Origin: Takakia lepidozioides
Taxonomy: Eukaryota > Plantae > Bryophyta
Assembly (NCBI GenBank): GCA_030704615.1
Contig: CM060731.1
Span: 48,422,001-48,486,000 of the forward strand
Direction: 5' to 3'
Length of the DNA: 64,000 nucleotides
The position numbers and the translations under genes were made by a program. Below, one piece after another: positions 16,741-61,977 of this stretch; the stretch's first letter is position 1, and the number at the start of each line of letters is the position of its first letter. The notes beneath the pieces are model-generated. The model saw nothing but the letters and a program-made list of their open reading frames with translations, ran no database searches and was not told the origin of the DNA.

Positions 16741-19305
16741 ATGAGTTATGCTAAGGGGACAAAAACCTTGATGGACAGCAGCTTTAATCCAGAGTCGTTT
16801 GGGAAGAGGTGCATCTTACTCACTTCACTTTTCTCTATGCACTTGATGCTCTCAAGTGCGTTCCTTGTCCACACTGGCCCACCGGAAACTCCGGATATGA
16901 CAGGTGGATTTGCGAGAACTACTTTCCAAGCACGTTATACAACCATGTGGGGCGGACCTGATAACGTCAACCTCATGGATGAGGGCAACACGGTGCGACT
17001 ACGACTTGACAGCCGCTCAGGTACATCTTACATACTTCTTAAGCATCAGAGGGCAACAGATACGTACAACGTACATATTAATGCATAGCGTACCTAAGTA
17101 TTACAACGTTGCAGTGCAGTCCTCATATGTAGATTCTCCAGTTTATACAAACTGACACATGTATGTTCGAGTATCCAGAAGTGGCATTCATACCAAGGTC
17201 AACTGACATACATAAACGTCGAGCACAAATTCATGCACGGGTGTACATTGATCACATGCACGAGCTCTTTCTGTCTTACCCCTGCACTGAAATTCCATGT
17301 TAGCAGTGGCATAATTTGGCCCGGAAATTTATGTGCATGTATGCAGGTTCAGGATTCATGTCACGGGATAAGATTCTCCATGGCTTCTTCAGTGCAGCGA
17401 TCAAACTGCCCGCAAATTATTCTGCTGGCACTGTCACTGCTTTCTATGTGAGTTTTGGTGCATGGTTCTTTCTTTGCAGCCCTCTGGTGAAATAAATGGA
17501 AGTCACTGAGCAAAGCTTGAGCACTCTAAATTCGTATCTGGAAAAGAAGTAGAGAAACTTGACTCACGTGCACTGAGCAGTCTCGTGCAAGCTTATAAAC
17601 AAATTAAAAAACAAATCAAAATATGGAAGCCTCTGGCAGCTTCTAGTTTCTCTAGTCACAAATGTACACAAGTATTTTAAATGGTCAATTTCGATTACTA
17701 TGAAATCACTCTGGCGACGTTGCTTCGTGCCTGCAGACTTCAAACCAAGACCTCTACCCAGACAAGCATGATGAATTTGACTTCGAGTTTCTAGGAGTCA
17801 GATCCGGCCAACCCTATGTTGTGCAAACCAATGTGTATGGGGATGGGAGTGTGTCAACAGGTCGGGAGGAGCGTCATCATCTTTGGTTTGATCCATCTGC
17901 TGATTTCCATGAATACAGCATTCTTTGGAATTCCCACCATACTGTGTAAGTGCCTCTGAACTCTAGCTCTCTTACAGATGTCAGGTCACCTCCAGGTCAC
18001 GTAGATGTGGGGCGAACGTTGGATGGCTGGACACGTCTGTACAATTAATAGGAATCTACTGCATCCATGCAGAATAGATAGACCTACCGATCTGTGGCTG
18101 GAAAATGGTAACTAAATCGAAGCCTCTGGACATGTTCTGATCCGCGTCTACTAGCGGTTGTCTCGAACATGTATTCCACCAGCTGCTCGAAATTTCTATT
18201 ACGTTAGGGGCAGTGAATGTACGTGTACGTCATACTACGGTGTGAGTCCTCTTCTAGACTAAAGCTATCAACGATGTTGGTCTTTGTGAATTCCAGATTC
18301 TTTGTGGACAACGTTCCCATTCGGGAATTCGTGAACTCTAAGGTTCTGGGGTTGCAGTATCCCGCCAAAGCCATGACATTGTATGCGACCATATGGGACG
18401 GGTCAGGCTGGGCCACGGAGGGGGGGAAATACCCTGTGGACTACACCCAAGCCCCATTTGACGCTACTTTTACCAACTTCAAGCTGGAAGGCTGTGTGTG
18501 GCCGAACCCCGCAGCGCAAACCACAGCACCGGAATGTTCGCAACCGGGGTTTCAAACTCGGATTAATGCTCACTCCCTTCACACACTTACGGGGAAACAA
18601 AGAAAGGCCATGGATTGGGTCCGGAAGAACTACCTGTGGTACTCCTACTGTGACGATCGGCATCGCTACCCTGTGCCTCTGCCCGATTGCATATCCACAG
18701 GTAATAAATCTGGCATATATACCATCTCGACTGTCTACCTAGCGCACTACTGGACGTTTGCATGTTGCCATGGGCATGATACAGAACTGAAAGTGATTCC
18801 CTGGTTGCACCTAGCTGCATATTATTGAACTTGTTTGCTGCAATCACGAGGTTAACAACTGAACTAAACAGAGCGACAGGAATTGTGCAGCTCGAGACCA
18901 TTCAAATGATACAGAATTACTATATATTGATCAAACTTTTGTTGGATCGAGTTCAAAAATACGGACCAAGCCCTGTAAGCTACAGGTGAAGCTAATTTAA
19001 TCCCATTCTTGAGTACTTACCTACTCAAGGACGGGATTATTATCAAGAAACATTTTAATTCCTCTGCATTCATGAGAGTTCTTGAATCTATAATTTCTGA
19101 TCAGCTTCTTGTTTAATGTAAATTTGCAGACTCGAAAGATCAGATTCTACCGACCGTCGATCACAACGATAGTACTATTGTAGAAAATGATGACGCTCCC
19201 ACGCCAGGTGCACTGCACAGACGGCAGCTACAACGTGGCGGGAGTCTATCAGGGGCCTTCACTTCAGAGCACCAACATTTTGCACAATTCATAGAGAACC
19301 AATAA
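16741..19305 (+). CDS. XTH: Xyloglucan endotransglucosylase/hydrolase (GH16), group III-like; exons ~16741-17020, 17347-17447, 17737-17945, 18297-18700, 19130-19305 (last exon tentative)
   Basis: Hydrophobic signal region; catalytic HDEFDFEFLG; QTNVYG..GREER..LWFDP; YSILWN; FFVDNVPIR; YATIWDGSGWATEGG; XET_C YSYCDDRHRYP..PDC. Intron positions are typical of XTHs. Confidence 0.93.
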
Positions 19306-20936: not shown

Positions 20937-23900
20937 ATGGAGTACGCATCATCGTTCTTTGAGGGCCGGCCGTCCAGGTGGAACTATGGATCGCTCAAGA
21001 ATTTCAACTCGATTTCTGCTCCGGTGCAGCATCATCTGCAGAGGGTATGGAATCGTTTGCCTGCGCTGTCTATTCCAGAGCTGTTCGTGTATTAGGTGCA
21101 TAGCGAAGATGACCAGATCGCGAGTTTCCTTGCCCCTCGTTTTAAGGGTGTTCCTGGAGTCGGGAGGTTTCATCGCATATTTTACTAGGGTGATCTGTTA
21201 TCTCCGTATATGTTTGTTCATTTTTCGCGGTGGCACGGGCTTATTGTTGTTTAGGGTGTAGCGATCGGAGATTTTACTAGGGTTATGTGGAGTCTACACG
21301 CAATTGTCCATTTGGGAGTAGCAGAGGGTTATTATGGTCTGGAATGGAGCTTGATCGCTAGAGTATGTGGTGTTGTTTACTATTTTGTGTTCCTAGTTCA
21401 TATCTGCCGCTCGTAGTATCTGGTAGGCATCCGTGTAGAAGAAAAAACCATCTTATAACATGGTCCCATAGGCGGGCTTTTCTCAACAGGCTATCATATA
21501 TGTTGAGGGTCATCTCCTTTCAGTCATTAGGTTGTGGACCACCACAAGCACCACCAAGGCTTCCCGATAGTTGGTTCTCTGAGGGCAGTGTAGGTAGTCG
21601 AAAACAGTGATGGGAGTCTGTTTTGAGACAGAGTTGGTGGTAGTTGGCTGCTCCCTGACCCTCTGCCTGATGAGTTTTCCTCTTTGATACCAACACAGTA
21701 AACCCTTGGGTAGAGTTAGAATAGTTATTATGGTGGGCTTACGACGATGGAATTTTGTATTTGGATGTGACAGGTATATATGACTTTGGCTGCTGCACTT
21801 CTGGTGTCTGCACTGGGAGTGTACGGCCACACACTATGGCACATTGGAGGTCTTATCACTTCACTTGGTTTCATTGGCTCAACTTTGTGGCTTGTAGCCA
21901 CACCTTCAACTCCACAAGAGGAGGTTTGTCTCTGATCATATGCAAACTTTCTTTGCCATGATGAGGGGTTAGGTTGTGTATCGGTACATGCCATCACAGA
22001 GAGAGCTTTTAATTGACAGGTATCTGCAAGTACAGGTCATGGAATACCTTAAGATATTCTCAGGAGACATACATATCTCTCTCTTCTCTCTGCTCTGGCT
22101 GAAACCCTGGTGGGGGCAAAGCCCACACAAGACTTTGGGTGGGTTAGTTTACCGCGGGGTCAATGGCTGTTAGGCTATGGCAAGCCCACGGTCCCCATGA
22201 ATGGCATGAGTACATTCTCTTCTCTGTTTGTTATTAAGTTTCGTCTTTCTTTCTTTCTCTCTTCTTTGATCAGTGGTCAATATCCAGAAGGCTATGGTAA
22301 GCCGAGTACAGTCTCTTCTTTGATCAGGGTTTTACCCGCCTAAGTTAACTCAGTAGTTCTCAAGCTATGAAGTTTTTCCTGTTTGATCTTTTTGGGTTAA
22401 GTGCGATCTTGGTTGGTAGTTGGGGCACTTTTCCCTGATATTTGATGGCATGGTGTTTTGCAATTCAAATTTCATAGCATGATCTCTCCTTTAAGATGTT
22501 GCTTAAATGAATTTTGTGCCCTTCCCTTCCACCCTGGATGTCAGATCCTTTTATTAAACTGCAGTTTATGAAACGAATGGGCTTCCTTTTTGCAGGGTAA
22601 GAGATTGAAGCTGTTGGCAGCAGCTGCGTTTTGTCAAGGTGCCTCTGTTGGCACACTTGTGGAGGCTGTCCTTAACTTCGACCCAAGGTATGTATGTTTG
22701 AAAAGTGCAGGTGAAGTTCAAAAGTGTTGTTAGGTTTGGATGAGAGATTAGAATTTTGTTTGTTTGAAAGCAGAGAATTGGGGCAATAATACATCGACTT
22801 TGTATATGAACAAGCAACGCTTGCTTGAGTTAATTTGGTTAATCTGGTTTGACTTTAAGGGGTGATTTCTCTCAAAAATTAAGTAGAGTATGAAGTTTGT
22901 GAGATGTTTCTGATGGAGATTGTTGTTCATGCTTAGCACACTCATACCCGGCCAAGAAGTTTCTTAACAGAAACAAGTTTTAATTGTATTAGTGAAGCTT
23001 GATGTAAGGAGGTTTTGTGTATTCGTACTTGTGCACAAGCTGTGAAGCTGGTTGAGACTAACTCCTGTATTGATTCTCAATGTGATATGGCAGCATTGTG
23101 GTGATGGCATTCCTTGGATCAATGGCCATCTTTGCCTGCTTTTCTGGAGCAGCGTTGTTAGCAAGACGTCGCGAGTACTTGTTTCTTGGTGGTGTTTTGT
23201 CATCAGTTGTTAGCACCATGATGCTGCTCCAATTTGGCTCCTTGTTTTTTGGTGGTGGAGCTTTGATGTACAACATTGAGGTATTTCCTTTCTTCTCTAC
23301 GTCCCTCTTCCTGCTTAAATGTGGCTGAGCAGTAATTGCACCTAGATTGACAGACAGGTGTCTCCTCCTGTTAAGAATCTGCGGCTTATTTTCTCTTGTC
23401 GTCGGTAATGTTTGTTCTCTTTATATTGTGAATCTCTAGAGTAAGGAATAGGATGAGGATTATTCTCCAGCATGAAACTTCCGGGGCTTCTAACCTAGGG
23501 AACATACAACAGATGTGGCTCTATCAAATACTCCATTGTTTGAGTCGTCATGATACGTTGGCACCTCCACACTTTATGAATTTTTAAGTCTGTTGAGCTG
23601 TGTAATGAGTGTTGGTGGAGGTGGATTGCAGATATATGGAGGGTTGCTTTTGTTTGTCGGTTATGTGTTGTTCGACACCCAAATGATCATTGAGAGGGCA
23701 AACCGGGGTGACTTTGACTACGTGAAGCATGCCCTTGACCTCTTCGTGGATTTTGCTGCAATTTTTGTCCGCCTGCTTGTCATACTGGTGAGTGATTGTT
23801 CTTTTGTACAGTTTGTGTCAATTTGGGTGCTTATATTGGAGCAGGGTTTAATCTAGGTCCTATGGGCAATGGAGTGCAGATACCTTGCCCCCCCCCCCCC

Positions 23901-26830: not shown

Positions 26831-28290
26831 GTTCCATCTCCTTAGGCAGTTGCTGTCCCTAGTTATTGTCTCTAGTTTTTCTGATAGGACCTACCCCATG
26901 TGTACTCTGGTTACGGGGCGGCGTCCCCTTCATCAGCCTCCATGGCATGTCATAGAGGTTATTTTTTCCTCCTTTTAATACATTGGCCTACCTCAGGCCT
27001 TCGAAAAAAGAAAAAAGAAATTGAAATTCCATGCTTCTACGCAGTTCTCCATGTCTTTTTTGTTGCTATGGATGCTTGCCATGTTTGTCTGTCTCTTGTT
27101 AGACATATTACCACAGTTATCCCATCTAAGACAAAAAATTTGGTGGGGGTGGCAGTAATTGACAAAAAAGGTATTTGTCAAGTTAAATAAGCACAGTGTG
27201 AAACTAGCTAGAATAAAGCTAGTTATTTGTATTTAACACTTGGATTTAGGTCAAGTGTTAAATCAGGTGTCAAGTTTAGTTTGACACCTGACCCGTCTTA
27301 TCTTCACGAGAGCGGCAGTCGCGCAGCTCATCTCTCTCGAGTTGAGCCTGCGCGACCGAGCTCCTTCATGCGTTTAGATCTGAGTGTGCTTATGATGGGA
27401 GTGTAGGTTGTTGTGGGGTGGAGTCCCCATAGCTTGAGGTGCCCCTGGCTCGACTTCTATTTTAAAGAGTGATGCTGTTGGATTCATGTTGTTTCTTATA
27501 TCAACACTATGTTTTTAGCTTTCTTATCACTCGAGAGAGATGACCTGTATCTAGTTTTCTAGTGCTAAGCTAGATGTGACGTTTTTGTTTTTAAGCACTA
27601 TTATAATATAGCTTGGTCACGAGAGCCGGTAGTTAGACTGGCAATATGTGCCTAGTGGAGCATAACAGAAAGGCAGGAACCACTCGAAGTGTCGCTACAA
27701 CAGTTCTAGCCTCCTGGGAATGTAGCGGGTCCAAGCTTTTTATAACAAGCAGGTGGGCTGGACCTGCTGTTTGGGTCTAAGAAGACTGGGTCGGCGGATA
27801 GGCCTCTATGGTTCCCAGGTGCAAAGGCCCCGTCTTGGGCTGGATGGATCTTTGGTCGGTGACGGTTACGCTATGGTGAAGTGGCGGATATGTGTAGGAA
27901 CGTCACATGCAAGCGAGTGCTTTGAGCGATTTAATCAAAAGATGATGTCTGAGGACATGTGGCACAGGTGTTCTCATCAACTGTGCAGATTGAGCATCTG
28001 ACAGTTGTGTTTGGCAGGAGTTCTGATCTCAGGGGTGAGCATTTGAAGGCAGGTTTGGAAAGGTTATTGATCTGGAACTCATTGAGCCAATGAGTTCCGC
28101 TTAAAGCCATTTTGCTGGAGGAGATTGCTGATTATTGATGTTCCTGGAGCTTCAGGTGCAGGCCCTGCAATCGCTGGCTAACAAGATTGATTAACAAGCA
28201 GAATCTGACGGGCAATCTGCCGAGAGCCTCATCTGCTTCTCGGAGGGGTTTCCGTAAAGGCCCGGAGGATTTAATCCATACAATGGCAAC

Positions 28291-28564
28291 CTAGGTGAGG
28301 TACCGAATCAACTCTGAAGCAGTGGCTATGGCGCCACCAGTGATTGCCGTGCGAATCATCTTGTCGTGATTAAAAGTGATCACGCTTTGTCACCCTTTCG
28401 TTCTTCAACATTGAGAAGGCCTCTAGCAATGTTCCATGAGCAGCTTCCACCCCTCCAATCTTGATGAAGCCGTCCAAAGTGTAGTTCAGAAAAGGATGGC
28501 CCAAGTCCACCAGCACATCTATAGTGGGAGAGTCAACTCTCGCTGATAGCCTCGAGTGCGGCAT
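28291..28564 (-). pseudogene. OEP16: Processed, internally deleted copy of chloroplast outer envelope pore protein OEP16
   Basis: MPHSRLSARVDSPTIDVLVDLGHPFLNYTLDGFIKIG matches the OEP16 N-terminus. After a deletion and frameshift, DKMIRTAITGGAIATASELIRYLT* matches the C-terminus. Confidence 0.8.
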
Positions 28565-28657
28565 TTCGCTCTGCTTTCCTCACACCCAAGTTCTTTCCTG
28601 CATCGGCAACAAATCTCTGCTGTCGCTGACGGATGGAGAGAGACACGGAGAGACGGA

Positions 28658-28846
28658 GATCTCATTGATGGCAAGAATCTGCCCGTGTGACCTCTTCACC
28701 TTCTTCAACTTCCTGAGGAAGTACCAAAACTTGGACTTTGCCCGCACTTCGTTGGTCGCCCACAACGTCATGCGGTACGCCTTCGGCTGCTCATCGGTTG
28801 GGGTAGGCAGTGCTCGCTCCACCACCTGGTGAAACCAAAAACTCGT
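28658..28846 (-). pseudogene. RPL18A: 5' fragment of 60S ribosomal protein L18a (eL20)
   Basis: [57 protein letters not shown]. The start codon position reads ACG and YQ is deleted. Confidence 0.9.
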
Positions 28847-28923
28847 GGCTCCTGCTTGCTCTCTCTCTCGGATCAGCAGAAGCTAGAAGGAGCGCGAGAC
28901 GGCCAATGCAGGCGCTGCCGTGT

Positions 28924-29415
28924 CTAAAAGGTAGGCTCATAACCATTGGTTGCAATGGCCAGGATGGCGAAACCAATGGCATGACCCAGAGCTCCCCAAG
29001 CAAGCACATCGACGAGGGTGAAACCAGCGGGGTCATTCGTCTTCAAAAAGCCAACGACCTCCTATGCCCGGCTATCACCGGCCTCGAAGTGAGTAACGCC
29101 ATTTTGTACAGGGAGTCCTTGCCTTGCAACATTGTCTCTCTGGAAGGGGAGGAACACAAATCGTCCCAGAAACAGAAGAGCTCTGGTGCTCAAGGAGATC
29201 ACAACCGTTGCATTGCATGTGGTCTTCGCCGAGGACTTGGCGATTCTAGTTTGGCTCGAAAACGACCGGTTGCTCATTGCCAGGGAATCCAATCGGTTGC
29301 CAGATCGCAGGCCGGGGAAGCTGGCCTGGACGGAGGCCACTCTTGCAACCTTCTTGCTTCCGGACAGAGTGGGAATGCCAGTGGCCACCCAGGAAGATGC
29401 AGCACAGGCAGCCAT
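28924..29415 (-). pseudogene. psaG: Near full-length photosystem I subunit G copy with one in-frame TAG (29062-29064)
   Basis: Transit peptide, then [77 protein letters not shown]...NGYEPTF*. Confidence 0.92.
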
Positions 29416-29878
29416 TATTGAAGCAAACCGTATCAAAATCTGCACAAACTGTAGGCGAAGCTTCAGAGACGGGCGCTGTGTGCAAAGATTTGTGCAAGAC
29501 CTGCGAGCTAGAGCGACAAGCCTGTGGTGGTGCACCTGTAACAACAAATGAAACCTGGGAACGGTTTGTAATGGTGAGAACGTTTTGGTGTTAAAAAAAA
29601 AAAAAAAAAAAAACCTTTTGATCTAATTTAAATGATTTAGAGCCTAATTGGTCATAACTTTGTCAGATGGACTCCGTTTGACTCAGTTTTTGGGGGGATA
29701 GCTGCAGAAAGGGGAAATCTACCTATCTTGACCTACCTATCTTGGTTTTAGTTTTTGGGACTCTGCTAAAAATCTAGGGAATTTTTAGAGTGTGAGTGTG
29801 CTATGAAAGATCCACAATTCTGTTTCTAGAACCTGTTCTGGTCTACATGAGAGATAAATCTGGGGATGTACTCCTTGT

Positions 29879-30622
29879 ATGGCTGGGGGAAATGAGGACG
29901 TAATTGAAGGGCAGGTCTCTTCTCTTAGCCTGTGCACACAAGGGGACAGGATTTATGTTTCCCAAGGAACTCAGACTGATTTGAGGGGAGAACAATTGGA
30001 CGAGTTGATTGCATACTGGGAGTCAGGCATTAGCAGTAGACAACAGACTGCTGTAGTTGGCATTGAGGGCCTCAATATCGCCTTGGACAGTCAGAACTCT
30101 GTTGGAGCCAGCAGTTCTGCAGCTGTAGGTGAAATACCAAAGTGGGTAAAAGCTAGGCTTGGAACACAGCCAAAGACAGCCCCGGGGACCAAGGTGTTCA
30201 GCCACAAGGCCGTGGTGTACTGGAGCAGAGGAGCTACACAAGTTTGTGCAATCAGACATGGTTGTAGCCGGATACACTCTGCACAGGGCAACCACGAGCG
30301 GGGGTTCATTAGCAATGACATGTTTGTTGTGCGTGAAGGAGATGCAGTCATTCTCAATGAGGACACCCGCAACCGTCTCAAAGCTTTCGAGTTGAGAGAC
30401 TATCAGACCCTACCTTTGTTTTCTTTAGTGTTCAGTGAGCGGGAGATAGGGGAGTATTGCTTTGTCTCTACCTGGCAGAAAGAGGAGGAGGGTTGGTTAG
30501 AGCGAGCTACTGTAGCTTGGGACAAGGTTAGTGGCAGGTTTCTGGACATAGATATACCTCCTACACCTTACCATCATGCAGAGCGAGGCACTTTGAGAGA
30601 AGTCTGGCAGTTGATAGCATAG
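29879..30622 (+). CDS. Uninterrupted 247-aa orphan ORF upstream of gag (candidate extra ORF of the gypsy element)
   Basis: ATG-to-TAG open frame on the same strand, ~300-400 bp before gag. No recognised domain. Confidence 0.5.
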   Translation: MAGGNEDVIEGQVSSLSLCTQGDRIYVSQGTQTDLRGEQLDELIAYWESGISSRQQTAVVGIEGLNIALDSQNSVGASSSAAVGEIPKWVKARLGTQPKTAPGTKVFSHKAVVYWSRGATQVCAIRHGCSRIHSAQGNHERGFISNDMFVVREGDAVILNEDTRNRLKAFELRDYQTLPLFSLVFSEREIGEYCFVSTWQKEEEGWLERATVAWDKVSGRFLDIDIPPTPYHHAERGTLREVWQLIA

Positions 30623-31000
30623 ATCAGGATTAGATCTTGCTTGGTCGGGCTTCTATTCTTCCCCTCCATCTCTGTACTAGTTTCATTACCTTGTACTTAT
30701 AGTTGCCAAAGCCTCTCTTGGTGGAGGCCAGTCAGTCCGGGGTTTTGGGCTGGGATATTCTACAGGTTAGCACTGCAGATGGATTTTGGTGTGGGGGTGT
30801 TGATGTTTTGATTTCTTGCGTTTGGATCCCCCCCAACACCTGCATGCTTGACTGTGCGCCATGTTGGTTTTGTGTGGGCGTTTGCTTTCATAGGGATTAG
30901 GCCGGATTTGATCACCGGTCAATCCTAGAGTATGTTGTCGGTGGTGAGGCTGGAGTGATGACCAGCAAGACCACCAGTGTTTCTTCTATGTTGAGGCTGG

Positions 31001-33014
31001 GTTGATTACCAGCCAACCATAGGAGTTCTTGCGGTGGATGCAGGTGCAGGTGCCCTGAGCCATTGGGATATGACCCTTAGACTGCAACAGGTGCCCACCC
31101 GTGTCACTATTAGATTAGTGTACTCTGGAGCTGTGGGCACAATCGAGTTGGATGACTTTATCCAGGAGTTCGACAGTTGGTGTGATTTGCAGCAGATGCG
31201 CAATCCACAGCTATTCACCCCATTCATGGCGTGGAAGGGGCTGTTCCAGCATTTGGAAGGCCCGCCTATGGACGATTACCACGAGTTCAGGTGAGGACAT
31301 GAAGCAGAGATTGAGGAGTGGAGGATGTATTGGTCACCTGACTACGTCTCCATTACTGGAGACACGACGCGACCAGTAGCTGCATCAGTACCAATATCTC
31401 CCACTACCAGCACTAGTAGTGGAACAAGTAGTGCCGGTACTTCTGCAGGTGGTACCAGTTCAAAAGGTGCTACTACTCCTCCTGCCACGACTACAACACA
31501 TGTGCCTAGATTCAACCCGGTGGTGGAGTTCTTCCAGGAGTTGCGGAGGAACTACCAAGGTGTACGGACAGAGAAGCTGCGAAGTTTGCAAGACTTCCAG
31601 CGCAAACCCAGTGAGAGTTTGCGAGAGGCCTACACTCGTATGAGGCGCTTGATAAGTGTGACCCAAGGGGTTACTGAAGCTCAGGCAATCCAGTTCTGGT
31701 ATGGAATTTTGGACAAAGAGCTCAGGAGAAGGGTGCGGGATGCAACCCTGTTACAAGCAGCCCAACCCACATTAGCAGATGTGTTTCTGCTGGCTGAGCG
31801 GATTGAGCTCAACATGGTGGAGGAGCGAGTTGTTACCATTGGGTTTGGCAAGGACATGCCTGCACGAGGCGCAGCTGCCAGCCCACAGGCACAAGGGACT
31901 GCCCAACAGCGTGGTCAGGGGGGCAAGGTTTCCCAACCCAAGTTCCATGGAGCTTACAGGGGACCTCAGGTGCAGAGGCCTGTGGCATCTTTTGCAAGCC
32001 AACAGCAACCAGGGGTGATATGTTGGACATGTGGAGGACCCCATGTCAAGAGAGATTGCCCAGAGAGTGGCAAAAGGCCAGCACAAACACAGCCTGCACA
32101 GTTGCAGTGTGGGCATTGTGGCAAGTATGGGCATGGAGATGCCCAGTGTTATGACTTGCATCCTGAGTTGCGCCCAGGTCAGTTCCAAGGGAACAATGGT
32201 GGCCGGGGGCGAGGTGGACCATCCCAGAGAGGACGAGGTGGTCGGGCACGAGGTGCAGGCCAAGGGCAAGCTCAACATGGCCAAGGACGCGGAGGTCAGG
32301 GTGTTGACCAAGGCATGGCCAACCGGCTTCAGCAGCTAGAGCAGAGGCTAGCTGCAATGGCTATAGCTCAGGCGGTACCGACTCCCAGGTGGGATGGTCC
32401 ACCTCCTGCTCCTGAGGGAGGAGATATGGGAGGCATGGGATTCATATGCGGAGCAACACTACCACTAGAGCAGGTGGAGTCTGCTGCAGCCGTGACTCGA
32501 GGAGCAGCACGAGTTCCTGAGCCACGAGGTGCAGAGATGGAGTTGGATTCACAACGTGGGGAGGCAAGCCGTCAAGCGAGGCTGCCTCAGTCATTCACCT
32601 TGGCGGAGACAGTGTCAACGCCATCCATGGCACCTAGTTCTCGCCCGACTGTTACCGAGGCGGAGGTTTCTATGCCATTGGGGAGAGCTACACGTGCAGC
32701 ACTGACACCTGCTGCCAAGGCTAGTGCAGCTGGTGTGTTGTTAGGGGCAGCCACCTCTGTGTGTCAAGCCCCACTGTTCTCGGCAACCATGATTGCGACG
32801 CCGGGGGTAAGACCAGCTGTAGTGTTCAGACTAGCAACAACATTCTGTGAGAGTGGGGAGGTCACTTCATCTTCTGCGGAGTTACTGGAAGGTGTAGTGG
32901 CAGAGGGATCCTCGGATTTGAGGGTCAAGACTGCCACGGCTGCGCCATGGCAAGCTGCAGCTGCCAGGTTGACGGAGCTGCCAGCTAGGCCAGCCTTTGA
33001 GTGCGCCATGGTGA
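31001..33014 (+). pseudogene. gag: gag region of the gypsy polyprotein (in-frame TGA at 31292)
   Basis: Capsid-like LDDFIQEFDSWC and QRKPSESLREAY...AERIE; zinc knuckles CWTCGGPHVKRDC and CGHCGKYGHGDAQC; RGG-rich stretch. Confidence 0.88.
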
Positions 33015-33277
33015 CCTGGGGGGTGCACTCTTTATAAACTGTGCATATCACGTGCGTTCGTCGCCTAATAAAAAAACCCCATGTATACGGGTCCTTGGAT
33101 AATTTATACCCCTCTGTACATATTTTTTGAAGATTATAAAACCCCCTCCTGTAAATATACAAAATTTACAATTTTTAAAAAGTACCCCCTTCTGTATGTA
33201 TATTCTCATTTTCCATCATTAAAAATAACCCTCCAATATGTATATGTATGTTTTTATATTATATCGAATTTATTCAT

Positions 33278-36200
33278 TTAAAACATAATAAAATATAACA
33301 AATTAATTAAAAAAAAATATTTGCCTTTGATAAAGTTGTCAAAGACTTTTCGGTCATTTGCATCAAGTACATATGTGTTTGACTTGACATTGTACTTTAA
33401 ACATGCTAACGCGATAATGGAATCCAAATCAACCATCATGTTATCCGTCAAATCGTACGTATAGACCCCTCCTCGAATTTTTGGTACCATGCTAACCCAA
33501 TCTCCATATGAGAAGGACGCTCCAATAAATCAACAGAATCCCTACATTCTACAAACCGCTTATTGATTTTCTTCCGCATTCTTTGAACCCTGCCCAAATA
33601 CCAAGTGCCTTTGGTTGCTCCTCTGCAGGTTTTCCCTGGTCTGCCTTTCCTGTTTGTAGTTTGGATCGCAGTCTCCTCATCAACAAAAAATACAGCACAA
33701 TCCGAACCCAATCCCAAGCTCGTGGCTTTGTTGCTGGTAGTTGGTTGGTTTTCTCGGCAAAACAACATCGATGCACTTCTTACTCGTGTCAATCTATCCT
33801 TGGATAGAGTAGGGTTGCCATTGAGTTGGCTAACCAAAGTGCTTTTGAATATGGTCTTCCCGTCTACTTTGACAAATGGAACCACCGCCTTCGGTCCATC
33901 TTTCTCTTGTTCAAACTCATCAATGACAGCATCCAGAGTATGTCTCAATTCACTCTGAATAAGTACCTCTTCCGCATGATCATCCAAAGGTTGGCTCAAA
34001 ACATCCTCCATTGAATTCGAAGGCCCGCACACCAATTCATCTTCCACGACCTCATTTTGAATATGTGTGTCTGCATTAAGAGGACAAATAGAATCTATGG
34101 CATCGAAATCATCACCCTCCACTTCCATGCTTTTGAATAGTTCGGCCTCCATTTGTCTCTCAATTGTCCATGGCTCATTATGCGTGTTAATGCTCCTGCA
34201 CTCTCAATCAAATCACACCCGTCATATGTCCTCTCATTCCGTAACATACCTCCCACTTTGCTGAAGAATATTTCACACACATCTGAACCAACAAGGCTCA
34301 AAGGAACTTGCACATGATTAAACTTATCCTTGAACAATTTGAGAACCACGTAGTGGCATGAAATTTGTAAATCCAAGTATGCTTCCCTGCTAATGAAGAA
34401 GGATTTCAGATTATACACCTCGTGGTGGAATAACCACAACTTCCACAATCTGAAAAAAAACGATACCTTCGCAGCAGATTGTACCCTCTCACACAATGAC
34501 ATGTGAGGAGACAAAAAAATGTCGATGTAGCATGAAATGATGTATAGGTAAATTTCAGTACCTTTGGTCCTCTCCCTTCGATGATTCACAGTTGATTGTA
34601 TCTCCCTCAAACAAGCTTGCACCTTCCGAGATGCCAGTCGTTGAGCTGCTGCCCAATTCTGTCGATCTTCTCTTTTAATATCACATTCCCGAAGTCCATG
34701 CTTGTCCACTGAAAATGAATGGTAGACCAATAACACATGATTCAATGTAGCAACCTCATCACCCAACACCAAAGTCCGTGATGCACTGTCCAAGGGATTT
34801 ACCAATTTTTTCCCATTGTGGATGAAGTCCTGATCATGGAGTCCGTATATATCTCCTCCGTTGCACACTCGACATGTAAACAACCATCCTTCCCAAGGGA
34901 TGCAAAATCTACTTCCAGCCCCATTGGCATAATCTTCTAACATCACTTTTCTCCTCCTACTATCTCCGTCTGAAGCATGCCCAATTATAGGCCCAACCAC
35001 GTCCCTCACATATTTGTCCCACAACTGTCTCACCACTTCCCATTGTGATCTCACAAAATTGTTGTCAAATCTATTGCAAGTGAGCTGGATTACCAATACC
35101 AATCGAGGTAATCGTACATGTAGAGGATTTGCTATCAACACTCTGGCGTAATGGGCAACCACATTGTTTTTGAATGCCTCCACAATATGTTCGTACCCTG
35201 ATTCCCCTTCTCCCACTTGCACCACAAAATTTGAAATACATACATGGTTGTCTTGAAGCCCACAGAACCCGAGAAGGGTGTCATCCCTAGCAATCCAACG
35301 TACCAATCGCTTCACAACAGTTTCATCTTCGGCCACCATCACTGGGATGCTTCCCATTGGAATATTTGCATCTTCCATCACATTTCTGTAAATTCCAACC
35401 ACATGCTGAAATATATCATCCCTTTCTCCCGCTTTGTACTTCAAACCTTTCCTCAAAGACCGTCTTGTAGTATCAATAGAAGGACCCCCCACATTTGAAG
35501 CCAAAAAATGATGCAATCTCGGACCCCCCCAAAGCTGCACAGTCTCAAACATTGTTTTTGTGCTAGTACCATACCTCTTCCCTTGTGGAGACCTGTCAAT
35601 ATTCTTGCCCATATCAACAAGAAAATCCCACAAACTTTCTTTTCCTTCAAAATCCCCCCTCCTATGTGCATCAACAATATCACGACAAAATTTGAGAACA
35701 TCTCCTCTTTCAATTGCCTCAATCCCAGACTCCTTCAAACTCCTACATCGCACAGACAAGGATATCACTTTGGTCCTGGCCTCCCACAATTTGAACCTCA
35801 ACTGTCTCAACTCCTGTCAAATTTGAACTCAACTGTCTCAACTCCTGTCTGTTTTTGTAAACTTGTTTGACAATCTCGGCATTTCCAAGATATGACAACC
35901 TTCTTCCCTTGCCAGTATCTCTCTCCCATCTACATTCCATGGCACCTCTTTCTCTATATACCCTCATTCTGAAGTCATTTTCCAAGGGAATGGAAGAACA
36001 TGCTGAACAGCCTTATAGTGTCACGTGGAGGAGGTGCACATTGTGAGTGTCATTACGGAGTTACCCAAGGGTTTTGAGGGGAGTACGGCTACAGGCAGTA
36101 ACAATGAGAGTGGGTTCACAAGACGAGGTATTCGGTTCAGACCACCTTCACCGCCACCCTCAACTACTGTAGAGTCAGACACAGACTCGGAGGCTTCATC

Positions 36201-37745
36201 AACAGGTGTGCAGTTTCATTCGCATTGTTGTGGGACGACATGTCAAGTTTGGAAATGGCTCCCCATCCAATGACACTCTAAAACAATCCGCGTGCCGAAA
36301 CGTACCAACAACCTTATGCTCTTGATTGGTTAGAGTGATGGTTGCATTTGTCAACGGCTCGACATACCACTTCTTTCCTCCCTTGCTATCTTGAAGGAAT
36401 GGTTTCAGACTTATTCTCTGCTGGTTGTACTCCCACCATTCATCCCATAGGCCCCAACACAAACTGTCTCTTCCTTTGTTGCATTGGGACCTTTGCTGTA
36501 ATTGTCAATCCTCGATCAGATCTGCCCGTTGGGCAGCGTCAACACAAGTGTATGGAGTTTGTGACGAGGATGCTCCCATTGTTGATGCCACAATTGGATT
36601 GTCAAGTGGTGGGGATGGCAACATAGGTTGACTGACCAAGAAAGAGCTTAGATCCTGTTGCTTTACATCTTTGGCAATCATAGGCTTTGGAGGCCTTCCT
36701 CTCTTTTTGCAAGGTCCTTCACTACTTCCAACCTTCTGGCAAATCTCTGCATCGACATGAGTTTTCCTTTCACATGCTCTGTCAAAGAAGATTGCAAAGA
36801 ACCTGTCCTTGGAAACAAGAGTAGCCACTTCGAATCAAGTGGGCACCTAATCCTTATGGAACCCAACTGCGAATAGTCTCCAATTGTGGCTTCCACAATC
36901 TCAAATCTGTTTCCAGGATTGTCCTCACAAAACCGAGCGACTTCCTCTAATGCCTCCTTCACCCTGTTCTTCTTTGCATCTAATGCTTCATCTGCATTTA
37001 CAGGGCTGATGACACATTGTGATGAACCCTTCCCATGACGCCTCTCATAGGCTATGCGATGCCCCTCACTCCTCAAATGAGATCTCATAAAGTTTGCACA
37101 TGCATCATATGGTTTGTTTTTCCCATACCGTGCATAAACATCCTCACACTCAACACACCATATGTGGAACATTGCTTGTCCTTGTTGATCCTTTGTCATC
37201 AGCTCAAACTTGTCACATCGTCCTTCTGCAGAGATTTTCCTTTCAACGGCTCTAATTTTTTCTGCCATTTTTGAATATCGTTGGATGTAGCCAATGTGCT
37301 GCACAATCTACCAGATCTCTGCTGAAGTGCATGCTCATGTGCATGGTCTTCATTTCCACCATCGCCAGCAAAGGGTGTATCAGGGTCCATCCTCATCTTG
37401 GTAGACACTGGTGCCGGGTCCTCGCCTGGTCTGTCCTCATGCAAGATCGTAGAACCACTGGAAGATAGAGGTCTTTTCAATCCTTGGTCCCCATCATTTT
37501 GGTCTGAAATCTTAATGTGTACAGTATCCCTTTCAGAACCATCCTCTCTTCTTGTTTGGCTGAAAGGACACTACCCCCCATGGAAAGGAAATGAAATTTT
37601 GCTGAGACAAGCTCATCACCTATAATTTCTGCTCGGATGCATTTGTATGTGACACCTTGCATAGTGAACACAGAACCAAGCCTGTTTGGTGATGCATCTC
37701 CTCCAACAAGCAGGACTTTTACTTCCAACTCTTCTTCCATGATGA
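33278..37745 (-). pseudogene. Frameshifted P-superfamily-like DDE transposase
   Basis: HTH-like GKRY...GGPRL..FL..N..GPS..T.RR; D1 AEDET (~35326); D2 ASDGD (~34969); QDFIHNGKKL.N (DxxH); DRQN...AQRL; E in GSDVCEIFFS (~34273). Upstream frames contain Cys/His fingers and an AT-hook KKRGRPPK. Confidence 0.8.
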
Positions 37746-38397
37746 GTTCACCTGCAAAATGCAATGAAAACATTTCAAATCAGACCTTGATAGACCAATA
37801 ACAAAGCACCCGAGTTGGAAGGTTCCAAAGTCCTGTTTTATACAACCCTATAGGCTGTCCAAGCAGGGACTACGTTGATAAGAGGATGAAATGTATACAG
37901 AAGCAAGTACCTGATTGATGAGTTTGACGTTGCTAATTTTTGCTGCTGCTATTGACCAAATGCTGCTACTTCCACTGCTGGTAGCCCTCTTGGGTGATCC
38001 TGAACCCATAGTCCATCCTTGCATCAGCGGCTAGCCCTCCCTCCACACTAACATATTTAAATACAAAGTTCTGTCAAACTCCCTACGATGTTGCATGAAG
38101 AAAGCTCACCTTGTTGACAATATTGTCCCACCGCTGTGGATCAAATTTATAGAACTCCTGCCAGCGCTGTTCCTTGCTCCGAATCTGGCCCTCTTGGATG
38201 ATTTTGCACCCACGATCCTCTCCCTGCATCAACAGCTACCCCTCCTCCACACTAACAATGCGTACATCATGCCTCTGCAGCTACTACTGTGGCTTCCAGT
38301 TGATCATCTACCCATGCAGGTTTCTTGTAGCTATCCTTCCACATGGAATCATAGGTAATCTGGAGCTTGGAATCCACCATCTGGAAATTTAGGGACG

Positions 38398-38916
38398 ACT
38401 CTGATAACAGGGAAAAACAGGCTGAAATGTGTTGAAGAAGGTACCTTCATTAGCAGTCCCTTGTTCTATCTATTGCGCTGCTGCCGCTGCTATTTCCAGT
38501 TGACCATCTACTCACATTGTCCCACCACTGACTGGGGTCAGAAAAGTATTAATTCCTTGAAAGCTTCTCTCCATCTCTGTTATCTTTTTTTAGGTACTGT
38601 CATGCTACCACCTCGGCAGTAACTTGCAAAGTCACTCCAGAGCACCGCAGATCCACCCAACGAGCTAACTTACAAAATTCAATACATATGCTTCAGGGCT
38701 GAGTCTGATGAGAGGGAAAAACAGGCTGAAACAGGTCAAACCAGAAGGTGCCCTCAGGCTGAAATACGTTGAAGAAGGTACCTTTCATCAACAGTGCCTT
38801 GCTCTATCAATTGCGCTGTTGCCGCTGCTGTTTCCAGTTGACCATCCACCCACATTGTCCCACCATTGACTGGGGTCAGAAAAGTGTCTCATTCCAAAGC
38901 TTCTCTTCATCTCTGT
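38398..38916. repeat. ~180-bp diverged direct repeat inside the P-like element
   Basis: GGGAAAAACAGGCTGAAA...GTTGAAGAAGGTACC...GACTGGGGTCAGAAAAGT...CATCTCTGT at ~38410 and ~38712. Confidence 0.8.
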
Positions 38917-38929
38917 GGTGCTATTGTAG

Positions 38930-39225
38930 GGTGACTTCAATGCCCAAGTGGGCAAAGGGCTCCATCAGGACGATATCATTGGGTCTTCTGGTGAGGACGA
39001 GCTGAATTCTAATGGCAGACGGTTAATTAACTGGCTGGAAGAGCTTCAGCTTTTGACCTTGATTAACAAGACAAGAGGTGACCAAGTGCAGTGGACTCGT
39101 GAGAAATCCCAAACTAGGGAACGTTCCATTGTGGACTATATCATAATGGACAAAATTTTGTTCCCCCAGTGTGCCAATGTGTTGATCGACAGAACTGATA
39201 TTGGTACCTCTGACCACTTCCTGGA
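38930..39225 (+). mobile_element. Fragment of a non-LTR retrotransposon AP-endonuclease
   Basis: GDFNAQVG...NSNGRRL...WT...SIVDYII...SDH, the C-terminal APE motifs. Confidence 0.8.
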
Positions 39226-42011
39226 CTGAGATCAAAAGGCGTTTTCCCAAGGCTAGAGTAGAAGAGATTCTCAAGGACCTGGACCTGGATCCGCAAGTCT
39301 TGACCCTGCACCTTAAATCCAACTTAGAGGCTGTAGTGTCCAAAGCCATGTCTATTGCCATGAGATTGTCTGATGAAAATGAAGTTAGGCAGAAAACTTC
39401 CCTGAACTTGTTTCTAGTCAGTGACATGGGGGAGGACATCTTGGATGACCTCAAGGGTCCACCCACTCTCGGCACTAGACTGAAATTTAAACTCAGGGAA
39501 GGAAGCCTACCTTTGAACATCAAACAGAAGCAGAGAGGAAAGGGGGAGTGCACTCTCCCAAGTGAACCTGCATTATTCAGTTGGCAAGCAAGTGTCTGAA
39601 AAATTGATCCATTTGAAGACACCACGGTGCAGCTGAACACGGCCTGACGTGACAACAATTAAACATCATACTGAGACAAGAGAAGCAGTCAAGGACATAG
39701 TCATGCATATGGCAGCAAGTGATCACCCTTCAAACATGATTGAAAACATACATGAGGTCAAAGGCAATTCGAAATCAGCGAAGGGTACTGTAGCTAAGAG
39801 TTGGAGTGTCTTTAAAGACAAAGGGAAGAGAAAGAAACACTTCACTGGCAATGAGGGGAGGCTGTGGAAACGCCAAGAGGATGGCACAAATGATAGAAAT
39901 AACAGGGTTGGGCAAAGGATCCTGCAGGAAGAAGAAAGGGTATGTCAGCATGGAAAGGACGTGCAGCTCATTCCAATGGAAAGGGAAACATTCGTGCAGT
40001 TAAGTACAACAACCAATTGCCCTTCAATTATGGCTGGAATTTTCCAAAAGGCGAGGGATGATAAGGAGGAGAATAGGCCTGATACAGTGAGTTGCTTAGG
40101 GGCAATGAAACAACTTTCTTTTGAAGAAATCAGCAATTACACAAGCAAGGGAAGGAAACTATAGTCCTTGTATGTGAAAGGAGGGTAATATGGTGCAAGT
40201 GCAAAAGGAAGGGAGGCACAAGGAGGTCACTTACTGCTAATTGGGATATGCTAGAGATCACAAGAAGGGAACAGGGGTACCCAGTAAGCAGAAGAGCAGC
40301 TGAGCAGGTGTGGGATGATGTTCGGGCTGCAAACACAACGGCGAGCCAAGCAACTGTCACTACAACTAAAGATACGAGTAAGTGGAGCAACATGATGGCA
40401 GCATGGAATATCTGCCGAGGGATGCTGGTTGGCAAGGAGCTGCGACATATGGTGAATGAGGAGAGAGACATGTCCCGAATCAACATGGTTCAAACACGAT
40501 CTGAAAGATGTAAAGAAAAGGTGCATTTGAAGGCAGAAGGGTATTATTTTCAGACTCGTGAAGAGCCTAATTACACAAGAGAAGAACGAGAAGGCAAGCA
40601 AGGAAAAATCTCACAAGCGGAAATGCAACCCTAAACGGCGAAAGTAGAACATACACGACGAGCACTGGAGAACATACCCATGAAACGTCAAGCATGTGCA
40701 CCACGTGCAGTGAAGGGAAGAATGTATGGGGGGCAGCAGTTATAACTGAACTACAAATGCGTTTGCTGCACTCAGTGACGAAAGAATACGGAGAAGCGGT
40801 GAAACTGCCATATGTGTTTATCTATGGACATTGGACACAAAAGAAAGGATGTTGGGCGCACCTGCGATTCATGGAAAACCAAAAGACAACAGGTGTCGAT
40901 AGATTGCGGAGCTAGTGGAGCTCAGGACATTCTGTCTGAGTATGTGAGACTTCCTACAGACAATAAGGGAAATTTTTTCACAGTGCGTCTAATCGAAGAC
41001 TGCTCTTCAGCAGTCTGCTTCAACTGCAGCCAAATGCTCCACATTAAGGTGGATTGCCCAACAGGAAAGAGAAAGCTTTCTCCAGCATCCAAGCTGCCAC
41101 TGGGCAGCCAAACTAGAGGGTCAAATGGCAGGGTCTCCCTCCAGTGCAACAACAACAATCAAGTGCTCAATCCCAAGATCTCCGTTCTTCGGCCCAAACT
41201 CTTCCCCCCAGTGATCACTTGCAAGTTGCGGGCAGTAGAGGTGCCTTCCAACACCATATCAGCAATCAGGACCCTATGCAACTCGAAGCGGCATCCACCC
41301 CTCGCAGGCAACCACTTGGCAAAAAAGATAGCAGCAGAGCTGCTGCACAAATCAAACCCTAAACTCCATCAGCACAAAAAGCTATGCCTTCTATGGTGGT
41401 CCACTCTCCAAAATTCTTACCAGTATTGCAAACAATCCATCTTTTGCAAAAACTTGCCTCAGGCAGGCTTCATTTCCAGGCCAAGACCTGAAAGGGTGCT
41501 CAGCCCTGGAATCCACGGAAGCGTCATTAGCAACATGTGTCACGCCAATCATTTATAGGAAAGGAAATAGGCCTAATGTGCTCATTACCTCTGATGACTG
41601 GGAATCTAGTGCCCCCACATTGTCCTACCATGCCCTGTGGAGAGGAGGGGAGAGGAGAGGAGGGAAAAGAGAAAGCCCACGGAAGGGAAGGCGAACGCGG
41701 GAGAGGAGGAGAAAGAAAAGAGAAAGCCGCGGGAGATCAGGGGAGAAAGATCGTGGAGCGAAAAAAAAAAAAAACAAACAAAACGACGATCCCACGATTT
41801 GATCTCGGGATGCATCGCGGCAAAATCGACATTCTTACCACTACACTATCCCTTAAAACTCAACAACCCCCTCCTGTAAAATTATATTTAAGGTGTTTTA
41901 AACCCCCCTCTGTATGTATAATGTTGTACATGGGGGGGTTTAAAATACCCCCTCCTGTGCACGCACGTGGCTGGTACATTTAATGAGGAGTGCACCCCCC
42001 GGGCATGGTGA

Positions 42012-44065
42012 CACCTGGAGTTGTCTTGTTAGACAACCAGGATGGCATTTTCTCTTTGAGTGGACCGGCAGGCAAGAAGTACCGGCCACTGCGGGTCTTG
42101 TTGGACTCGGGAGCTCAGCCACTGATGTTGGGCAAAGCTGCTATTGCAGGTTTGGGCCTCATGGAGGCAGATATGGGGCCTTGTCCTTTCCAGATACAGA
42201 CATCTCTGGGAGGATCAGAGCAGGCTCGGGGCATGACACGGCGTGAGTTGGCCATTGGACTACAAGCAGATCATCCTGTAGATGGCTCAGTGATGCGAGC
42301 CAAGGCTATTGTGACAGACGCGGTCTCTTACAATGTCCTCATTGGTGGGGCAGTGTTATATCCCATGGGCTTCACCCTGGACTTTTGGGAGGAGTCAGCA
42401 TCCTACAGGCCTGGATGGCAGTCAGGGGATGGTCGTCGTGCACAGCTCCCTGTGACATTCATTGGGGGTATTGCGGCTGCCCAACGGGGCAAGATGCCAA
42501 CACTAGCCGCCTTTACAGCTGCAGTTAGTTGGCCTGGAGAGTTGCTGGAAGGCAATGCCCATGCAGAGGATGTGCCACCTCCAGCAGAGCAGGATGACAT
42601 GCATGGTATGGCGGAGTTGTCTGCCATGGTTGCTCACACTCCATTGTGGGGTACGAGCAAGGATTTGCAGCAGGTTGCTGATCGACGGGTGCAACAAGCC
42701 TGGGTAGAGGCTTTTGTACCGTCAAGAGAGGAGGAGAGTGCGGGTATTGCACCAGGACCACCTCAGTTGTCACCATTGGATACCACACCTATTGTGTGGC
42801 AGTATATGGATGAAAGCATTTGCTTTCTGGACTTGTTTGGCGGGATCAGCACCGGATTGGCTGCTGTGCTACAGGCAGGTGTGCGGGTAAGGCGTTACTT
42901 GTATGTGGAGAGGGATGAGACTGCACGACGCATCTCACTGCGCCATGTGGCTCAGTTGGTACAGCAGTACCCTGACTTGTTGCCTGTGTCTGCAGTTCGT
43001 GGATACCAACAAGCCTTGCCAGCAGACATTTCCTTGTTGGGGGCGCAAGATTTGGAGCAGGTTGGCTCCATTGATCTGATAGTGGCAGGTTGGCCCTGCC
43101 AAGGGCATTCATCATCCGGGCATGACAATGGATTGCGAGACTCGAGGACGGGTCTGTTTTGGGAGATGGTGCGGGTTTTGCGCCACTTGCAGCTTCATCA
43201 AGCTGTATCTCCAGCATACATCTTGGAGAATGTGCCACTGATGGATGATTCTCGGGCCAGGGTGATGGCCAGTGTGCATCAAGTCCGGTCGTGGCTTGGG
43301 TCAGCAGTGCTGCTGGATGCAGCTGCAGTGGGATCACGGGCTCATCGTCCACGGCTTTGGTGGACTAACTTGATGCCACCCGCACTGCTCAAGCGTGCAT
43401 TTGATGGGGTGCAGCGGCCAGCACACCTCACCGTGGATGGCATTTTGGACACAGGGAAGCAGTCTCAACGTGTGAGACACGATGACCGTTCGCCTTTGGC
43501 AGTGGTCAACAGGGTGGGTCAACCACGAGCAGCATTACCTACACTGCTCAGCTTCCCAGGATCCCATGCTTTTCGGGATGGTGGACCTGGCCTCTTGTGG
43601 GATAGCCAGTTGCAACAGTTAGTGGAGCCTAATGCCGACGAGCGAGAGCGGGCTATGGGATTTTCCACTAGGACCACGGCCGTGCCTTCTCTTTCTGAGG
43701 CATCACGTCGTCAGGTGTTGGTGCAAGCAATGGATCTCAATTGCTTGACCTGGATTATCAGTTTGGCTATGGCTGAGCAACGTAGAGTGCGGAGTGCACT
43801 TCCCTTGACGGTCTCTCTACCTACCGAGACGGTACAGGCAGCGAGTGGGGGCGAGCCGGTGAGGACCACGGGGTGTAGACATCCATGGCACACGTGGGAG
43901 GTGCTCGAGGTTCAGAGGGAGTTGGCAGCCAAGGCAGCTGTGATGGATGAGGTTGGGGATTCTTCTCGGGATGAGGAGGTTCTCAATGATGAGATGATGG
44001 GGCAGGATGAGGCCTTGTCATTGACTGAGCAGGCAGGGAATACTGCTCAAGAGGTTGCAACATAG
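42012..44065 (+). CDS. Gypsy aspartic protease followed by a DNMT3-like C5-cytosine DNA methyltransferase domain (~42815-43770)
   Basis: Protease LLDSGA (42104). MTase motifs in order: I FLDLFGGISTG, II YVERD, III ADI, IV AGWPCQG (Cys at 43097), V RTGLFWE, VI LENV, VIII HRPRLWWTN, IX ERERAMGF, X RRQVLVQAM. Confidence 0.92.
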
Positions 44066-47000: not shown

Positions 47001-47188
47001 GTAGGATTGACCCAAACCTGGCAGTGGTATCTGCAGGTTTGAGGTGCATGTTGTGTGGGTCTGCTAGAGGGGCAGCCACCATGCTGGTGTGTGATCGATG
47101 CTCTCGAGGTTGGCATATGGGATGCTTGACACCACCTCTTGAGATGGTTCCGGATGGGGATTGGTTATGTCCACATTGCATTGGATAG
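44066..47188 (+). pseudogene. pol: Gypsy RT-RNase H-integrase-PHD, with frameshifts and nonsense codons
   Basis: RT: RMCGDYR..N, LDLRSGYHQ, PFGLKNAP, YIDD. RH: HTDWS..GLGAVL, YASR, TDHQPL. INT: degenerate HHCC, SLDFAGP, TDQGREF, GLAER. PHD: CMLC...CDRC.RGWHMGC...WLCPHC. Confidence 0.93.
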
Positions 47189-47593
47189 TGAAAGTGGATA
47201 CACCATGGAAGGCTAACAAGAAACGCAAGGCCCAGCTACTAGGAGACCTTGAACACACGAGATCCTGGCTCAAGTTCACAGATTGCAAGACAGCGACTAA
47301 CGATGGGGCTACACTTGTACCCGGCCTCTTGGTCGATAGAGTTTGAGCACAATAGGGACAGGGATAGAGGACTTAGTACGGCTGTGGCTATTACATCTTG
47401 TAGCTATCTGGAAGTAGAGGGACCTATCCACCAGCTAGGGGGGCGATTGTGGTAGACTACTTTATTGTGCATATATGTGTGGTGTGGTTTGGACAGCGAT
47501 GTAGTTGTGTTGCGATACGTATGCGCACGACATATTCCAAAAATGACAACGTGAGGAATTGGGTCATTGTGGTACTTTAACATTGGTCACAAC

Positions 47594-48054
47594 CAATGTT
47601 GGACTAGTATACCGATAAGAAACTGGTTTCAATACTGGTATGTATACTGGTATGAAGTACCAGACCACTTTGGTATCACCTCAGGCCACTACCTAGCATA
47701 TACCTGTATTGGCCTCGTATCTGCTTCCTAATATTGTGGACGATACCATACCCGTCTGGTAGGTGGTTGAAAATCTGGTACCTGATACGGCCAGTACCAT
47801 ATCCATATTTGTGAGGAAAACCTAGGTATCAATACTTTGAGGAACTTGACATATCATGAGTTTTTTTTTTATACCAGACCAGTATTGATAATACCCTGGT
47901 ATCAATTTCTAAAAACTCTTGCTATGGATACCACCATGGTATCCAAATCTCATATTTTGCCAGTACCAGTACCTCCCTGGTATCACAATTGGCCGGAGGC
48001 CTATATACCAGTACCAGCCTGGTGTGTTCAAAATATGATACCAGTCCAACACTG
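47594..48054. mobile_element. Non-autonomous hAT-type MITE (461 bp)
   Basis: TIRs CAATGTTGGACTAGTAT / ATACCAGTCCAACACTG, 8-bp TSD GTCACAAC (47586-47593 and 48055-48062), many internal ATACCAG/CTGGTAT repeats. Confidence 0.88.
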
Positions 48055-61957: not shown

Positions 61958-61977
61958 CTCCCCCTTGGTATCAGAGC

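Follow-up and report, generated by a model that had tools for sequence, protein, structure and literature searches.

The locus described here raises the question of how fragments of host genes, some of them reading backwards, came to stand ahead of the gag gene of a retroelement. Within the 64,000-nucleotide stretch of Takakia lepidozioides DNA that was analysed (the window), we detected a cassette of 1.8 kb at 27777-29613, ahead of a Gypsy-DNMT element, in which no fewer than six fragments of host transcripts are joined. Their order is sense Lhcb4, a non-annotated stretch, sense HLH-like, antisense OEP16, RPL18a and psaG, then 71 bases and a run of 21 A (A21). The first-pass annotation had described three co-oriented host pieces (psaG, RPL18a and OEP16); the trio is indeed co-oriented, but the left edge of the cassette lies at least at 27777, and two of the three further transcript pieces have the opposite orientation, which makes the whole a mosaic of mixed polarity. 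With moderate confidence we propose that a reverse transcriptase wrote this mosaic by moving from one RNA template to another, and that the product was then multiplied with the element.

Contigs of four public runs (X1, X5, X6 and X9) were mapped on positions 27000-31200; X1 and X5 are DNA contigs from two studies, and X6 and X9 were taken, by a guess, to be RNA. Translations, database matches and gap-free RNA contigs placed psaG, RPL18a and OEP16 on the minus strand where they had been annotated, and thus antisense to gag-pol, which lies on the plus strand. The psaG piece (28923-29521) was previously called near-complete; psaG is present, but its coding sequence (29415-28924, 163 codons) is in fact complete, the piece ending 1 nt past the stop codon. 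The 106 nt of 5' leader reach at least the start of the RNA contig (29521). The piece aligned to the RNA contigs without gaps (8 differences in 521 nt and 11 in 599 nt), and its translation matched PsaG in PDB (E 4e-62), the closest named proteins being moss PsaG at 71-74% identity. The in-frame TAG at codon 118 (29064) is missing from all four runs and is private to the window copy. X5 piece 14 leaves the window sequence at 29450 for 179 nt, pointing to a variant copy; position 29450, at an AG, lies in the leader of psaG and may mark the end of an intron.

The OEP16 piece, also on the minus strand, comprises 56 nt of 5' leader with codons 1-62 (28378-28620, ATG at 28564), covered by gap-free RNA contigs with 6-8 differences, followed by the C-terminal codons, the stop at 28293-28291 and 32 nt of putative 3' UTR (28259-28378). 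A word-index search was blank, and a full scan gave the Tim17-family match: positions 28564-28373 match residues 1-62 of P0181, a 147-aa Tim17/PRAT-family protein, with 55% identity, and the last ~29 codons (28380-28291) match its residues 121-146 with 62%. The second Atlas match is a cluster named OEP16-2. The identity of the piece and its internal deletion, about 56 middle codons, thus agree with the earlier description, but the deletion is probably secondary and not a feature of the capture, because X5 piece 11, from another copy of the cassette, spans the HLH/OEP16 join and departs from the window sequence precisely at the deletion breakpoint, 28378, for 95 nt. The breakpoint has 1 nt of microhomology. 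Upstream of the leader, a 36-nt pyrimidine-rich (72%) stretch (28621-28656, minus strand) is likely a non-coding first exon of OEP16. At 28620 both RNA contigs diverge from the cassette into sequence with an ending like an intron 3' end, and it is plausible that a leader intron was lost in the cassette; no report on OEP16 introns in moss was found in the literature.

The RPL18a piece (28657-28922, minus strand) holds a 5' leader, a mutated start codon (ACG, 28846-28844) and codons to ~67, crossing three intron sites; 28846-28657 corresponds to the 5' third of the gene and matched eL20 in PDB (E 1e-28). Six nucleotides are absent after codon 7, and 28661-28830 aligned to RNA contigs without gaps. 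To the left, in sense orientation to gag-pol, lies an Lhcb4 (CP29) fragment (27777-27863) with a 1-nt frameshift at 27837. It shows 2 differences in 87 nt from contigs of X6 and X9, whose loose ends continue in frame, and its 20 aa have CP29.1 as the best land-plant PDB match (E 3e-4). The stretch at 27864-28125 (strand not given) has an RNA-contig match at 28027-28125 (X9 piece 26, 5 differences in 99 nt), and a perfect 11-bp inverted repeat with a 3-nt loop is located at ~28064-28088 inside this unnamed transcript piece. The next fragment (28107-28258, plus strand), presumably HLH-like by its motif, shows 8 differences in ~152 nt from RNA contigs (X6 piece 18, X9 piece 27). Pfam gave no match for the RPL18a, OEP16, HLH-like and unnamed (28027-28125) pieces, and an Rfam search gave no credible match. 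A functional chimeric open reading frame was considered and rejected, the frames being broken.

End-to-end fusion of abundant transcripts is a typical feature of cDNA chimeras, and contaminating cDNA in the assembly or library had to be considered. The RNA contigs depart abruptly from the window sequence at the cassette joins, and DNA contigs cross five of these joins with at least 31 letters per side: 27863 and 28027 (X1 piece 2), 29521 (X1 piece 5), 28258 (X5 piece 11) and 28923 (X5 piece 13). For the RPL18a/OEP16 join at 28657, a bridging contig is absent among the 32 of 10,001 pieces listed. The pieces carry decay mutations and the copies differ among themselves. The junctions are genuine, an assembly chimera being excluded by DNA contigs of two studies, and we regard the artefact as largely refuted, with hardly any probability left to it. 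Among the pieces listed there is no junction-bridging RNA contig, which says nothing on expression.

Whether the donors were RNA or DNA was judged by introns. RPL18a introns after the first few codons and at AINE/I had been named in the first-pass annotation; both sites are real in relatives, and both are crossed by the cassette intronless. In place of the parental loci, the best 80 of 104 RPL18a-encoding contigs of relatives were compared. Intron-less matches are not under-counted there because the search puts them first. Site 1 (after codon 4-6) carries an intron in 65 of the 80, none in 5, with 10 unscored; site 2 (within the Trp codon of KSKFW) carries one in 63, with 3 more showing the start only, none in 12 and 2 unscored; site 3 (after AINE) carries one in 63, none in 12, with 5 unscored. 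These counts include the 12 loci that lack introns at sites 2 and 3, 9 of which carry no lineage label. Seven distinct genes were labelled moss-type, a label of our own based on the HGQ/KAYRM motifs. Four of them have all three introns (307 nt at site 1 and 575 nt at site 2 in L025), and three (L003, L004 and L005) lack those at sites 2 and 3, L005 keeping site 1. These three are metagenome contigs, and the exons of L004 are identical to those of the intron-bearing L025. At sites 1 and 2 the cassette reads through without a break, flanked by long matches, and it extends 4 nt beyond site 3. The mid-fragment site, missed in the first reading, is the strongest test. Derivation of the RPL18a piece from spliced RNA is thus well supported, because it crosses intron sites carried by intron-bearing moss-type genes, and the cDNA origin proposed earlier for this piece is sustained.

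The same data bear on capture at the DNA level, of Pack type or by a Helitron, with genes or older intron-less retrocopies as donors. Pack-MULEs and Helitrons pick up several host fragments in mixed orientation and occur in multiple copies; mixed orientation is typical of capture at the DNA level, and the cassette shares it. Intron-less RPL18a copies exist among the moss-type contigs, and the RPL18a piece is more diverged than its neighbours, lying 12-13% from the deepest RNA contigs vs 1.5-3.3% for psaG and OEP16 (p 1.5e-8). An older intron-less retrocopy could be the donor; a paralogous RNA contig explains the divergence equally. The 71 nt between psaG and A21 (29522-29592), which contain a T-rich-then-CAG stretch on the minus strand, could be intron sequence; this interval (29522-29613 with A21) is entered by X1 piece 5, spanning 29409-29574. 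Against these points, the introns that such capture retains are missing outright at two RPL18a sites, 243 nt of OEP16 and 599 nt of psaG are collinear with RNA, and the pieces begin in the 5' leaders of abundant transcripts. At the cassette ends no inverted match >9 nt and no direct match >7 nt was found between the end zones. The cassette therefore has no terminal inverted repeats (TIR) or target site duplication (TSD) of its own around the cargo, a feature that could have overturned the original interpretation and that sets it apart from Pack-MULEs, as the lost RPL18a introns set it apart from Helitrons too. We consider DNA-level capture quite improbable.

The next question is whether the cassette belongs to the element. 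At the right, A21 (29593-29613, plus strand), the sole A/T run in the window to reach 15 nt, closes the cassette, and high-copy sequence then continues into gag. This 5' region (29614-31006, plus strand) has a summed depth of 2e5-9e5 and contains a 246-aa open reading frame (29882-30622), for which Pfam and Atlas searches were blank; the frame is covered by low-depth X6 contigs. It is followed by gag (31007-33014, plus strand; Retrotrans_gag, E 0.0024) with one internal stop, and by pol (42004-47188, plus strand), frameshifted, in which Pfam identified protease, C5 DNA methyltransferase, reverse transcriptase (RT), RNase H, integrase and a PHD finger. The DNA_methylase domain (E 5e-13) is located between the protease and RT and the PHD finger after integrase; the PC and ENV motifs are present, and motif VIII presumably resembles that of Dnmt3. 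The pol region has 59 homologues, the named ones from Marchantia, Calypogeia and Sphagnum at 45-66% identity. A search for family relatives with their flanks gave one weak match in viral contigs and none in prokaryotic genomes.

Between gag and pol a later insertion of 9.0 kb (33015-42003) is marked by terminal inverted repeats, which are G-rich, and an 8-bp target duplication. It has minus-strand open reading frames of 573 aa and 251 aa without a Pfam match, a LINE endonuclease remnant at ~38927-39226 (E 4.5e-5) and a zinc-knuckle frame at 40803-41558. Downstream of pol a polypurine-tract-like run (47437-47446, plus strand) is followed by TG at 47448, and a MITE-like insert with ~15-bp inverted ends and a 6-9 bp duplication (47593-48055) lies just past the putative 3' LTR start.

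The left flank is likewise high-copy. A very high-copy block starting with TG (27141-27613, plus strand) is a candidate 5' LTR; the summed depth at 27141-27563 is 2e5-7e5 in X1 vs 39 on the unique flank. Next to it lies a TGG-led motif (27614-27629, plus strand), which we take to be like a primer-binding site (PBS). A low-copy stretch (27631-27776, no strand) with no listed RNA piece, no Rfam match and no reading-frame clue separates it from the Lhcb4 fragment. For the PBS-like motif and the element lineage, the accessible part of Neumann et al. 2019 (PMC6317226) gave no assignment. No LTR pair was detected in the window by repeat finder, blastn, local alignment or k-mer search, and no copy of the 27141-27613 block was found after pol by blastn, local alignment or k-mers. 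Comparison of 26900-31050 with 46800-49200 gave no common word of at least 13 nt in either direct or inverted orientation; the ends may be lost. It had been proposed that the cassette sits in a Gypsy leader: the right flank, running into gag, agrees with this, but the left block has no LTR partner. Location inside the element's leader is thus likely, though not proven, because an LTR pair was not found.

The missing LTR pair could also mean that the cassette is a separate unit, either a polyadenylated plus-strand transcript retroposed by a LINE or part of another repeat (27141-27613), abutting a 5'-truncated Gypsy. A21 at the right end of the plus strand would fit such a transcript, and no contig joint skipping the cassette is present among the nine joints listed, those near the A run lying outside that set. 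But no TSD of 7 nt or more is found at the ends, immediately beyond the A run the sequence is high-copy again and stays so as far as gag, and a step building the mosaic would be needed beforehand anyway. We judge the separate unit improbable. A LINE-made processed pseudogene of the trio itself was rejected: the A run is on the opposite strand, TSD are absent, and the cuts are on the 3' side, while such pseudogenes show a 3' poly(A), TSD and 5' truncation.

The cassette is present in several copies. X1 contigs over it are 260-514 deep vs 58.5 on the unique flank, with some minor alleles at 54-65, which suggests ~4-9 copies, contig depth being a poor and rough measure of copy number. Variant copies, differing among themselves, are found in X1 and X5. 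Contig depth and variant copies together point, roughly, to the secondary amplification used as a criterion by Tan et al. 2016 (PMC5131818). The left block of pieces shows 15 differences in 338 nt vs 17 in 821 for psaG and OEP16 (p 0.03, or p 0.10 without the unnamed piece) and may be older.

How, then, could three pieces have been written backwards? The first-pass annotation had invoked serial template switching on co-packaged mRNAs. In the published model (PMC5131818), the enzyme leaves the element's RNA for an mRNA packaged with it and then returns. This fits the sense pieces, Lhcb4 and HLH-like, which would be ordinary minus-strand switches onto co-packaged mRNA, but it cannot alone have produced the antisense trio, because such switching gives sense inserts. 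The two RNA matches that overlap by 19 nt at 28107-28125 fit microhomology, both donors being visible at few joins. The antisense trio has a common polarity, in which the 5' leader is kept and the 3' side is cut (psaG at stop+1, RPL18a at codon ~67, OEP16 32 nt past the stop), and each 5' end abuts the interior of the next piece.

This polarity would be expected if the plus strand of the trio were first-strand cDNA, synthesized by running off one template and restarting on another. In that case the growing plus strand would leave its DNA template and prime near the OEP16 stop; having run off the 5' end of the OEP16 mRNA, it would restart inside RPL18a, run off again, restart at the psaG stop and finally return to the element near the A run. 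Copies would later decay separately, as in the OEP16 deletion and the psaG stop. The simplest enzyme, to which we give somewhat better than even weight, would be the RT of the element itself during plus-strand synthesis, resuming just behind the PBS; that this synthesis used mRNA templates is our inference. No paper on plus-strand or antisense capture was found in a literature search that covered few subscription journals. The cargo is most likely a non-coding, decaying passenger.

The polarity also bears on a different origin, in which a chromosome break within the element's 5' region was patched with RNA-derived sequence that the element later spread. Here 3' ends would be extended on mRNAs by any RT (e.g., that of a LINE), or loose cDNAs would be ligated either way. 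Two broken ends priming on RNA would account for the mixed orientation, the lack of TSD and the A run at one end, and the possibly greater age of the left block (15/338 vs 17/821 differences) points in the same direction. Moreover, gag-pol is not replaced here, unlike in the Drosophila cases described in PMC5131818. On the other side, three successive co-oriented pieces with their 5' parts kept suggest one processive enzyme, and the PBS-like motif adjoins the cassette, where strand transfers occur. A break patch seems unlikely to us; it and plus-strand capture would produce the same geometry, and sequence alone cannot separate them.

Tan et al. 2016 (PMC5131818) describe retroposition mediated by LTR elements through template switching, including the mouse "Super" retrocopy of four genes. 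The cassette resembles those cases in having partial intron-less pieces of unlinked genes in or beside an LTR element, with the copies multiplied afterwards. It differs in that the cargo is 5' of gag, the element's reading frames are kept, three pieces are antisense with their 5' leaders, and no LTR pair was found. Of the features used by Tan et al., absence of parental introns is seen for RPL18a, judged on the genes of relatives; flanking by an LTR element is seen at the right, where the sequence runs into gag, with a high-copy left flank; presence of both 5' and 3' LTRs is not seen. The table of PMC5131818, in the part available, gives one strand sign per retrocopy, and antisense capture is neither shown nor excluded there. 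Maize Bs1, an LTR element that carries exon sequence from three host genes and exists in 1-5 copies sharing switch points (as cited in PMC5131818 and PMC5408686), is described as a chimeric gene; in the cassette the frames are broken, the donors number at least six and the orientation is mixed. In the way it works the cassette resembles Bs1 and the LTR retrocopies of animals; membership is not proven, and we do not file it there because the LTR pair was not found.

The element itself has a counterpart in KnitGypsy-Dnmt3 from Klebsormidium, described in PMC5890265 as a Gypsy pol with an embedded C5 methyltransferase and DIRS-like repeats; streptophyte Gypsy-DNMT3 elements are likewise covered in bioRxiv 10.64898/2026.05.21.726589. 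As in these, the C5 methyltransferase lies inside a pol of Gypsy order (protease, RT, RNase H, integrase). Unlike KnitGypsy-Dnmt3, the present element belongs to a moss-like land plant and has a PHD finger, an extra 5' open reading frame and host cargo, and split or inverted repeats were not found. A DIRS-like repeat layout could, by analogy, explain the missing LTR pair. No description of a bryophyte DNMT-Gypsy was found in the literature.

Few plant examples of LTR elements capturing several genes are known, and our search, with few subscription journals covered, found none in mosses. New with respect to the literature consulted are the moss host, the methyltransferase Gypsy, the cargo ahead of gag, the at least six donors and the antisense block. 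The three antisense 5'-leader pieces would record a different reverse-transcription step or break repair. If the copies are transcribed, they would readily supply RNA antisense to three abundant genes (photosynthesis, ribosome and plastid import); small interfering RNA from retrocopies has general precedent (PMC5408686). That a bryophyte Gypsy with its own methyltransferase captures mRNAs backwards in plus-strand synthesis and yields antisense RNA to host genes is a doubtful, speculative extension; if true, it would be a distinct capture route, and the element could steer small-RNA silencing onto abundant host genes.

Elsewhere in the window, a divergent PPR gene pair with 303-bp repeat units was detected at 1292-4555 and 6492-9080, the second with E, E+ and DYW domains. 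An XTH exon (18217-18828), a Bax inhibitor-1 exon (23638-23787), a GH17 glucanase (54867-55799), an aromatic amino acid lyase (57487-59679) and a copia integrase fragment (61936-63390) were also observed. Two 152-nt copies at 61594-61965 are each called an odd tRNA-like gene by ARAGORN and are possibly SINE-like.
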